NCBI GenBank assembly: GCA_043803945.1
Contig: JAZDJN010000048.1
Location: 24,124-88,123 of the forward strand
DNA length: 64,000 nt
Direction of reading: 5' to 3'
Source of the DNA: a bacterium
Lineage (GTDB): Bacteria; Bacteroidota; Ignavibacteria; UBA10030
Part shown: positions 56,367 to 57,881 of the stretch, piece after piece
How positions within the stretch are numbered: position 1 is the first letter of the stretch
Layout of the letters: every line of letters starts with the position of its first letter
The notes under the pieces: generated by a model
Databases searched by the model: none
The model's input: the letters and a program-made list of their open reading frames with translations, nothing else
Told to the model about the DNA's origin: nothing
Made by a program: the position numbers and the translations under genes

Positions 56367-57881
56367 TTATTTTTTTAATTGATACTTAAGAGCTGTGCTT
56401 TTACCCTTCTTAATAACCAATCCTAATCTCGTAAATTGAGAAAGGTGTCTTTGAGCTTTTTTATTGTTATATCCAAAATGTTGCGCATATCTTAATTTGC
56501 TTACTTCCTTCTGGTTATAAATGTAGAGTAATCCTTCTCGCTCTTCTTCATTTAAATTACCATAGGCTTGTTCCCCAATTATTGAAGCAATAAAGCTTAC
56601 AGAACGAGGGAATGTTAGGGTTATGTACGGATCGTTCCAAGTAACAATAGGAAGTGGTAAATCATATTTCTCCGGCAGTGATTTTAGAGTGGCCATTCCA
56701 ATGCCGCGCTCTTCAACCAAATGCATTGCACTGAAGAGTGAAGTGATTTTAGGATTACGGCTCAATACCGGAGCGTTGAGTGCAATAAAATCCTGGAGTT
56801 TTATAGGCCTCACCGGTAAGCCGGGACTCTGTACAATTATTGTATCGTGTGTAATCTTGAGATAGCACTTTGCATTCTCTACATCATAGTCACGGTGAAC
56901 AAGTGCATTGATGACAGCTTCTCGAATGACCTCCAAAGGAAATTCGAGTTTATCTTCTCTTACAAAATGTTCTCGTGATATTGAAGACCGGAGAACATTT
57001 CGCAGCCATTCTTCTATCTGGCTTGGAACAAGTACAAGCGCATCTTTAAAGTCGCGAATTTCCGGTTCATGTCCATCGAATTGTGCTTCGGCCTTTAAAA
57101 CGGCTTGCGGAAATTTGTCACTGGGATTCTTACCGAATAACAATATTCCTATTCCGGTCGGTGCATAGACTTTTCTTTGTTCATCGTATGCCAACAAGCC
57201 CTTCTCGACCAAATGTTGTTTGAATTCCAGGCCGTGCAAAGAATAATTTCGTTGAGACATCGCAAGATATTTTTCGAGAGCTTCTGAGGAGAGAACGCTG
57301 AAATCGCTTTCTGGAATCTGACGCTCAAGGGGTGTCAACTCAATGGTCTTTGGCTTCCGTGCTTCATAAGCACGTTCTTGCGCTTCGAGGAGAAATTGTT
57401 CGTTCTCCTTCCTGATCCGATCTTGAAGGTCTTCATCGAACATTTCGACTTCAATGCCAGATTCCTCTAAATATTTTATTCCCTTCCGATCGACAATGGG
57501 ATCAGGATCTTCAATACCCACCCATACTTTCTTTACACGTGCATTCACTATTCGTTCAGAGCAATCTACTTTTGGATGCCGGCGCGACCCGGGAGCACAT
57601 GGTTCAAGCGTCGCAAAGAGATAGGAACCCGTAATGTCTTTATCACGGAATTTCTTATCGATGAGAGTATACTCTGCATGATCCCCCGCACGCAATTCTC
57701 CGCGAGCTGCTGTACCAATGAGTTCGCCATCTGGAGAGACAAGAATCGCGCCAACCTTTGGAGAAGTTTTATCTCCTCTCTTTTCATTTACCGTTGTATT
57801 CATGATTTCAATAGCTTTTAGCATGAATTTCCGAGGGTCTAATGATGGCTTACTGTTAGGTGTACGTTTTTTCATGATCAT
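56367..57881 (-). CDS. Zn-dependent deaminase domain fused to RecG-C/HATPase_c_4-like domain and wHTH
   Basis: KVGAILV, DHAEY, TLEPC-x11-C, DPDP; then REAVINALVHRDY, SPG, RNPKI, EERGIGM; C-terminal wHTH. Confidence 0.85.
   Translation of the reverse strand: MIMKKRTPNSKPSLDPRKFMLKAIEIMNTTVNEKRGDKTSPKVGAILVSPDGELIGTAARGELRAGDHAEYTLIDKKFRDKDITGSYLFATLEPCAPGSRRHPKVDCSERIVNARVKKVWVGIEDPDPIVDRKGIKYLEESGIEVEMFDEDLQDRIRKENEQFLLEAQERAYEARKPKTIELTPLERQIPESDFSVLSSEALEKYLAMSQRNYSLHGLEFKQHLVEKGLLAYDEQRKVYAPTGIGILLFGKNPSDKFPQAVLKAEAQFDGHEPEIRDFKDALVLVPSQIEEWLRNVLRSSISREHFVREDKLEFPLEVIREAVINALVHRDYDVENAKCYLKITHDTIIVQSPGLPVRPIKLQDFIALNAPVLSRNPKITSLFSAMHLVEERGIGMATLKSLPEKYDLPLPIVTWNDPYITLTFPRSVSFIASIIGEQAYGNLNEEEREGLLYIYNQKEVSKLRYAQHFGYNNKKAQRHLSQFTRLGLVIKKGKSTALKYQLKK

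Follow-up and report, generated by a model that had tools for sequence, protein, structure and literature searches.

A RibD-like zinc deaminase on a Schlafen-type body: a candidate sensor-gated effector carried as cargo in DNA-targeting defence operons

In the 64,000-nucleotide stretch of ignavibacterial DNA analysed here (the window), the gene directly downstream of HmaA and upstream of HmaB, on the same strand as both, encodes a 504-residue protein in which a RibD-like zinc deaminase heads a body that normally bears a Schlafen domain: a middle domain, a GHKL-like HATPase_c_4 domain and a winged helix-turn-helix (wHTH). We propose, with moderate confidence, that this protein is a sensor-gated deaminase effector carried as stand-alone cargo in DNA-targeting defence operons. 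Its architecture, its conserved residues, the exchange of heads on a common body and its genomic association were computed, and from these we infer the effector role, the gating and the free-nucleotide substrate. Schlafen-type cargo bodies and defence deaminases are already known; the new element is a RibD-derived deaminase head on such a body. Coordinates are collected in Table 1.

The open reading frame (ORF) that a preliminary description of this DNA had placed at 56367-57881 is present at exactly those coordinates, with 504 residues, on the minus strand, which that description did not give. Its ATG (57881-57879) overlaps the TGA of the upstream gene (57880-57878), forming the ATGA junction with a helicase stop that had been reported, and a second in-frame ATG two codons downstream is the start of the database copy (502 residues). 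Taken by itself, the four-base overlap suggests that the gene is probably translated together with the HmaA helicase. The upstream gene, earlier called simply a helicase, was identified by Pfam and PADLOC as the helicase-nuclease of an Hma, or type-1 BREX-related, system. A Nucleic Acids Research survey of 2026 describes the HmaA/B/C set as a type-1 DUF499-centred BREX-related system (PMC12839542).

We then considered the catalytic residues. The HAE and PC motifs described earlier occupy residues 68-70 and 94-95, and the second zinc cysteine is residue 107; the PC..C spacing given earlier was wrong, the motif being PC-x11-C, with 11 residues between the cysteines and not two. In an alignment of 24 homologues (47-58% identity), H68, A69, E70, P94, C95 and C107 were invariant, as were the family signature RGExRxGDHAE and, further along the protein, E321, N325, H329, D331, G354, R375, N376, G395 and M396. 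The reported run of REA..NAL.HRDY, SPG, RNP and GIG was found at residues 320-396. The invariance of these residues across the 24 homologues indicates that the signature is more than a chance resemblance and, with H68, E70, C95 and C107 all conserved, the zinc deaminase is apparently competent.

An AlphaFold model built on the 24 homologues (mean predicted local distance difference test score 84.3) contains four units: the deaminase at residues 16-174, the middle domain at 185-298, HATPase_c_4 at 316-425 and the wHTH at 428-502. Pfam assigned the head to dCMP_cyt_deam_1 (PF00383), the cytidine/deoxycytidylate-type zinc deaminases, over residues 19-122 (E 4.3e-12), and part of the body to HATPase_c_4 (PF13749) over residues 338-423 (E 3.8e-9). 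The wHTH proposed from the sequence appears in the model as three helices at residues 445-485 and two strands, and a PADLOC CARF-HTH model matches residues 437-499 (E 1.5e-5); Pfam called no HTH in this protein and called HTH_24 at the equivalent place in relatives. When the body was compared with the PDB by Foldseek, the best match was DIP2311 of Corynebacterium diphtheriae (3lmm; E 1.3e-11 over ~370 columns), which a sequence search also found at residues 289-398 (E 1.2e-6). DIP2311 is an uncharacterised AlbA_2/HATPase_c_4 protein from structural genomics and, unlike the protein studied here, has no deaminase head.

Profile, sequence and fold comparisons all place the head closest to RibD/RibG. 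Foldseek aligned the two at E ~1e-10 (root-mean-square deviation 2.4-3.0 over ~150 columns, 27-31% identity), in agreement with a sequence search of the PDB (RibD/RibG at E 4e-14); dCMP deaminase, yeast cytosine deaminase and the APOBECs (E ~1e-3) gave much weaker fold matches. Head and RibD have in common the HAE motif, a PC...C motif with an insert, basic residues within that insert and an aligned DP.P loop. The insert reads APGaR.hpK in the family and sH.GKTPP in RibD, and the DPDP loop of the family aligns with the DP.P loop of RibD. We take the basic residues of the insert and the DP.P loop to hold the ribose phosphate in RibD, an enzyme that takes the 2-amino group off a pyrimidine nucleotide derived from GTP. 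The head differs from RibD in lacking the reductase domain, in an insert three residues longer, in its own RGExRxGDHAE signature and in a serine where RibD has the asparagine of its NP motif; the serine and the new RGExRxGD stretch point to a substrate other than that of RibD. Among the traits listed for the RibD-like clade is a CxxC motif interrupted by an insert, with a conserved histidine (PMC3239186).

Because its best profile and PDB matches are to RibD, the head might be no more than a housekeeping or redundant riboflavin deaminase, a RibD paralogue fused by chance to a regulator. We regard this as hardly credible. The RibD profile TIGR00326 matches over positions 17-138 of 343 and scores 68.7 bits against a cut-off of 156.35, a shortfall explained by the missing reductase half, and a complete RibD (350.7 bits, above the cut-off) lies on another contig of the same genome, which has five further matches to deaminases of the cytidine deaminase (CDA) fold. 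RibD was found in 41/41 sampled genomes of the phylum and a match of the family's kind, in an open frame of ~500 residues, in two (the source genome and G002). In a maximum-likelihood tree of 57 deaminase domains (24 from the family, 30 RibDs from one phylum and three long-branch outgroup rows), the family members formed a clade (support 100/99) whose stem is 2.31 changes per column long, and the 30 true RibDs grouped apart from it (support 88/77). The family also differs from RibD in being patchily distributed and found in defence loci. A housekeeping RibD was thus rejected on score, on the genome's own full-length copy, on the tree and on distribution, and clustering with true RibD, which the preliminary description had named as a refuting outcome, was not observed.

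We next asked what such a head might act on. Under the reading we favour, the body would hold the deaminase silent before infection and release it when infection occurs, or when the primary DNA-targeting system is engaged or blocked. Sensing could involve DNA or DNA-breakdown products at the HTH together with nucleotide binding by the GHKL-like domain. The freed deaminase would convert a nucleotide, most likely a free mononucleotide, since RibD is its nearest relative and RibD-like features of the pocket (the cysteine insert and the DPDP loop) are present. That conversion may starve or poison phage replication, or halt the cell. In a more specific version, to which we give little credence, the head would deaminate a guanine-type or unusual nucleotide (dGTP or GTP to the xanthine nucleotide, or a phage-modified deoxynucleoside triphosphate) and the body would sense DNA-breakdown products of the helicase-nuclease. 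A guanine-type substrate is conceivable because the head descends from RibD, with its 2-amino chemistry; we know of no defence deaminase that attacks a guanine-type or phage-modified deoxynucleotide substrate. If correct, this version would describe an immune operon of two layers whose nucleotide-poisoning chemistry is new.

The same cargo effector could instead edit nucleic acid, acting on tRNA, mRNA, single-stranded DNA or phage DNA as a mutator or to block translation. Nucleic acid could be reached through the C-terminal wHTH, the head has further Pfam matches to Inv-AAD (35.5 bits, cut-off 26.5) and, below threshold, to MafB19-deam, and the weak APOBEC fold matches point the same way. In addition, the Schlafen head that the deaminase replaces is a tRNase in studied systems (PMC13462974; bioRxiv 10.1101/2025.07.24.666596). 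However, RibD, with its mononucleotide-like substrate, is nearest whether sequence, profile or fold is compared, and the RibD-type basic cysteine insert and the DPDP loop are kept. We therefore consider nucleic-acid editing possible, though on the unlikely side.

The preliminary description had proposed that the deaminase replaces a Schlafen/AlbA_2 domain on an otherwise familiar chassis. This head swap was evident in BLASTP comparisons: residues 193-396 align with residues 169-371 of a Schlafen-headed protein (L170; E 3e-12) and residues 192-411 with residues 191-411 of a DUF4062-headed protein (L176; E 2e-10), so that homology begins at residue 192-193, right after the deaminase, and runs colinearly through the middle domain and HATPase_c_4 at 26-27% identity. 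Pfam found no SLFN_AlbA_2 in the deaminase-headed protein and found one in L170, L177 and L178. In the ESM Atlas, where deaminase-headed clusters have 119, 457 and 101 members, the nearest body clusters of other kinds were headless HATPase_c_4+HTH and SLFN_AlbA_2-bearing ones, and a structure search also returned a DUF4062+HATPase_c_4 cluster. The PADLOC models Aga_SIR2-PNTD1-PNTD2, associated with prokaryotic Argonaute (pAgo), match residues 143-397 (E 5e-18), indicating that the same body also stands behind a SIR2 head.

The head in turn behaves as a mobile module. Searched alone (residues 1-175) with HMMER, it matched 119 representative clusters at E <=1e-30 and 1597 at <=1e-10, and members of this deaminase clade are also seen flanked by unrelated regions, with neither the body nor HATPase_c_4. 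This fits a portable effector module. Several variants were seen. A sister form (GEHAE, EPCTxRNHPKxPC, LDPNP; P0163, P0203, P0221, P0227, P0259, P0264 and P0268) has its deaminase in mid-protein or at the end, in some proteins with glycine-rich tails, and the other regions of these proteins have no Pfam or PADLOC match. Three proteins (P0152, P0179, P0180) carry an extra N-terminal region of 130-180 residues before deaminase and body. Forms of ~620 residues (P0005, P0010 and others; L067) have an insert of ~120 residues in the middle domain, at a position between residues 233 and 239 of the 504-residue protein, without a Pfam match.

Proteins with a Schlafen head, a minimal histidine kinase plus a wHTH domain provide the closest precedent for this body. 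They were recorded in at least 1017 taxa, within BREX and BR loci, and read as backup suicidal effectors (PMC12839542), and the architectures pSlfn-HisKinase(-HTH) are the commonest among prokaryotic Schlafens: of 5,930 such proteins, 34.0% are fused to the histidine kinase and 19.2% to the kinase and HTH, and 69.6% have a defence gene no more than 10 kb away, with 1.9 defence genes nearby on average against 0.13-0.19 near ribosomal genes (bioRxiv 10.1101/2025.07.24.666596). The Cash paper groups Schlafen-ATPase-DNA-binding proteins with BREX, restriction-modification (RM) and type I CRISPR systems and speculates that they sense structures produced by DNA cleavage (PMC13462974). The deaminase-headed protein has the middle domain, HATPase_c_4 and wHTH in common with this COG2865 type; both are found directly downstream of HmaA and both are associated with restriction-type systems. 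Embedding in BREX-, BR- or RM-type loci, the locus trait of the COG2865 type, was seen here as well, both in the position between HmaA and HmaB and in the neighbourhoods of homologues (38/78 against 0/20 controls, below). The difference is that a RibD-like zinc deaminase takes the place of the Schlafen RNase, with deamination predicted instead of RNA cleavage. A protein combining a deaminase with HATPase_c_4 was not described in the full-text literature searched, and the supplements of PMC12839542, PMC13462974 and the Schlafen preprint might list one; the available parts of these three and of the 2011 deaminase classification (PMC3239186) do not mention a deaminase on this body.

To place the gene within its own locus, we examined what follows HmaA elsewhere in the phylum. 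A search of 401 genomes gave 31 with an HmaA match at E <=1e-60, and downstream DNA was taken for 12 of the 13 other near-full-length matches, one being omitted at a contig end. The next gene encoded SLFN_AlbA_2 + HATPase_c_4 (+HTH) in three loci (L170, L177, L178) and DUF4062 + HATPase_c_4 + Fic-like_C in L176. In L167 and L168, whose HmaA proteins are the nearest (63% identity), a YhcG/DUF1016 nuclease came next; L172 had an AbiEi/AbiEii pair there, and two loci had small ORFs without an assigned family (L171, and L169, where HmaB was not found). HmaB followed HmaA with nothing between in the remaining three (L173-L175). After the body-type gene came HmaB in L170 and L176, and HmaB was not found in L177 and L178. 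This variety, with 4/12 loci holding the same body under another head, places the deaminase gene in a position for interchangeable cargo. A deaminase head next to HmaA was seen in 0/12 of these loci and HmaB or HmaC in 0/80 loci of deaminase homologues (BLASTP, 1e-5), showing that the gene is not tied to Hma; a core Hma component was accordingly rejected.

The family itself is widespread. A word-indexed search listed 120 clusters, all with PF13749 and PF00383 at 47-62% identity and named, where a name was given, 'ATP-binding protein' or 'ATP-dependent DNA helicase RecG'. When one genome per species was scanned, at least 395 relatives came up among the 600 pattern matches listed, and the best 80 of these were taken as homologue loci, 78 of them with a called target ORF (L035 and L062 without). 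The 80 include Bacteroidota, Ignavibacteria, Oligoflexia, Planctomycetota, Verrucomicrobiota, Acidobacteria, Proteobacteria, Elusimicrobia, Caldisericota, a Firmicutes and a Saccharibacteria metagenome-assembled genome. HAE and EPC...C were each present in 78/78, a circular count that is not evidence, the loci having been found by motif-bearing peptides.

The neighbours of these homologues were clustered after crude ORF calling, and hidden Markov models (HMMs) were built from the resulting target-locus clusters. The neighbours that recurred in the same orientation were HsdM, HsdS and HsdR of type I systems, the gene usually standing between HsdS and HsdR or following HsdR; a type IIG enzyme accompanied by a PLD-SNF2 helicase and by a small protein resembling DprA/PsyrA; and pAgo. 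At least one type I RM, type IIG RM/PLD-SNF2 or pAgo gene lay within 10 kb in 38/78 loci (type I-like 29, IIG/PLD 18, pAgo 4), and the same HMMs found none at 20 RibD-centred control loci of ~20 kb from one phylum (one of 12.8 kb, at a contig end). By this comparison the enrichment in defence islands expected from the preliminary description was borne out. A co-oriented upstream gene was present in 61/78 loci, at a gap of <=30 bp in 35/61 when the longest possible ORF starts were used. The four loci with pAgo are defence islands that also contain AbiEii and an HD-CE/HATPase protein. In one of them, beside pAgo, the deaminase-headed homologue has a Schlafen (SLFN_AlbA_2) gene immediately upstream (L060:8607-9926, plus strand), which indicates that both head types can adjoin in one island. 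In seven type IIG + PLD-SNF2 loci (L007, L021, L041, L055, L059, L066, L072) a conserved protein of ~154 residues follows the deaminase gene directly or nearly so. It has a weak DprA-family match (29.0 bits, cut-off 29.6) and a PsyrA-like PADLOC match and could be a partner of the deaminase or part of the IIG restriction system.

In type I, type IIG and Hma loci the gene lies embedded among genes for restriction and modification, which raises the idea that the enzyme makes or removes a modified base, marking DNA or nucleotides as self or non-self, and RibD chemistry on a 2-amino group would suit such a role. We think this very improbable. The gene is not core to any one system, as the absence of HmaB/HmaC from the 80 homologue loci and of deaminase heads from the 12 HmaA loci attests; its RM partners vary from locus to locus; and other loci have Schlafen RNases, YhcG nucleases or AbiE toxin-antitoxin pairs in the position after HmaA, in keeping with interchangeable cargo.

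A further alternative is that the protein serves mainly as a transcription regulator of the defence operon, with the deaminase-like head and the GHKL-like domain as ligand sensors. The C-terminal wHTH is in keeping with this, databases call body-type proteins 'transcriptional regulator' and headless HATPase_c_4+HTH clusters exist. A candidate operator is also at hand in the 494 bp (55873-56366) that separate the deaminase gene from HmaB. Within 73 bp there, the 10-mer GAGATGGACA occurs exactly three times, twice one way and once inverted, and the 64 kb contain no further exact copy. A 26-bp near-palindrome (56295-56320) shares bases with a weak minus-strand site that resembles a promoter; from its sequence, the arrangement looks like a putative operator array in front of HmaB. 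With one mismatch allowed, GAGATGGACA gave nine matches against 5.8 expected, which is not significant, and a scan of the gap returned no terminators and two promoter-like sites against 2.3 expected. A 62-residue ORF (56060-56248, minus strand) overlaps the array and has no credible family match. Nonetheless, we consider a purely regulatory role improbable. The catalytic glutamate and all three zinc ligands are invariant across phyla, a constancy that mere sensing of a ligand would not require; the alternative heads of this body (Schlafen, DUF4062 and, in the PADLOC Aga models, SIR2) are enzymes or resemble enzymes; and deaminases of the same clade are joined elsewhere to unrelated regions that have no HTH.

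Several points weigh against a sensor-gated cargo deaminase. A wHTH and a nucleotide-binding head could equally make a regulator. No PADLOC model spans the whole protein, the partial matches being to Aga_SIR2-PNTD, pAgo and CARF-HTH alone. Membership of the dCTP-deaminase (AvcD/Dcd) or RADAR systems, tried as a candidate, was rejected, there being no PADLOC match at E <=0.001. The two Schlafens found to be protective had other architectures (bioRxiv 10.1101/2025.07.24.666596). The neighbourhood statistics use crude ORF calls, HMMs derived from the target loci themselves and controls of a single phylum; 40/78 loci had no match to any of the seven defence families that were seeded; and the remaining co-oriented neighbours are diverse and include metabolic genes, with no dominant Pfam family among 82 such proteins at the +/-1 positions (top counts three members each). 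Mobility is deduced from patchy phyletic spread alone; tblastn against 72,556 plasmid and 50,697 phage records gave no match covering 80% of the query, only partial matches to the body or to RibD.

The likeness to AvcD and RADAR drawn in the preliminary description thus holds as a concept and fails as a family match. AvcD/Dcd and the deaminase-headed protein are both zinc deaminases of the CDA fold and, as we propose for the latter, effectors on the nucleotide pool. They differ in partner domain, and the head is RibD-like, with dCMP deaminase about five orders of magnitude weaker in Foldseek. RdrB of RADAR and the CRISPR-associated Cad1 have the adenosine-deaminase/amidohydrolase fold and not the CDA fold. 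These two ATP-to-ITP adenosine deaminases are alike in the concept of a sensor-gated defence deaminase (for Cad1, as cited in PMC13462974) and have different sensors.

Elsewhere in the Hma locus, the frames of an M78/IrrE-type peptidase and a DUF4411 protein abut and form a second cargo position, between HmaB and HmaC; the Hma loci L167, L168 and L173 likewise have extra ORFs there. The island is flanked by ordinary genes (Table 1). Further out, at 40464-44513 on the minus strand, a 1349-residue ORF with BNR/Sortilin-type repeats and a Por secretion tail, the type IX secretion signal of Bacteroidota, adjoins glycosidase and TerC genes; this ORF and its neighbours are ordinary genes that mark the edge of the defence island.

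Table 1 Features of the deaminase gene and the surrounding Hma locus (window coordinates)
Feature	Position	Strand	Basis
Whole deaminase gene: deaminase head, middle domain, HATPase_c_4 and winged HTH, 504 residues	56367..57881	-	ORF list, translation, Pfam, AlphaFold
RibD-like CDA-fold zinc deaminase domain, residues ~16-174	57360..57836	-	Pfam, TIGR00326, PDB sequence and fold matches
H68-A69-E70, zinc ligand and catalytic glutamate, inside RGExRxGDHAE	57672..57680	-	Invariant in 24/24 aligned homologues
P94-C95...C107, two cysteine zinc ligands with 11-residue insert (APGSRRHPKVD)	57561..57602	-	All three invariant
Middle (linker) domain, residues ~185-298	56988..57329	-	AlphaFold elements, colinear BLASTP, PADLOC Aga match
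HATPase_c_4 (GHKL / 'minimal histidine kinase'-like) domain, residues ~316-425	56607..56936	-	Pfam, 3lmm matches, invariant residues
C-terminal winged helix-turn-helix, residues ~428-502	56376..56600	-	AlphaFold, PADLOC CARF-HTH, HTH_24 in relatives
Candidate operator-like repeats: three exact GAGATGGACA copies and palindrome	56179..56320	.	Repeat finder
HmaA, SNF2 helicase with C-terminal NOV_C (PD-(D/E)xK-type) nuclease	57878..61345	-	PADLOC E 2e-174; Pfam SNF2-rel_dom, Helicase_C, NOV_C
HmaB, DUF1156 N6-adenine methyltransferase	52837..55872	-	PADLOC E 1.7e-107; Pfam DUF1156
HmaC, DUF499 AAA+ ATPase	48268..51063	-	PADLOC E 1.3e-94; Pfam DUF499
M78/IrrE-type peptidase, 384 residues	51600-52754	-	Pfam Peptidase_M78 E 1.3e-17
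DUF4411 protein, 166 residues	51100-51600	-	Pfam DUF4411 E 9.6e-49
DinB-family gene, ordinary flank of the island	47294-47788		Pfam
FAD oxidoreductase, ordinary flank of the island	61526-62638		Pfam

The family is wide, with many phyla, at least 395 relatives and 119 head clusters at E <=1e-30, and a deaminase with a built-in regulatory domain could interest builders of base-editing or nucleotide-sensing tools. If the sensor-gated cargo reading is correct, defence deaminases would include a third, RibD-derived lineage. The natural head swaps would offer a means of finding what the body senses, in its Schlafen versions included, and the body of the commonest bacterial Schlafen effectors would be a general switch for an RNase, a DUF4062 domain, SIR2 or a deaminase.

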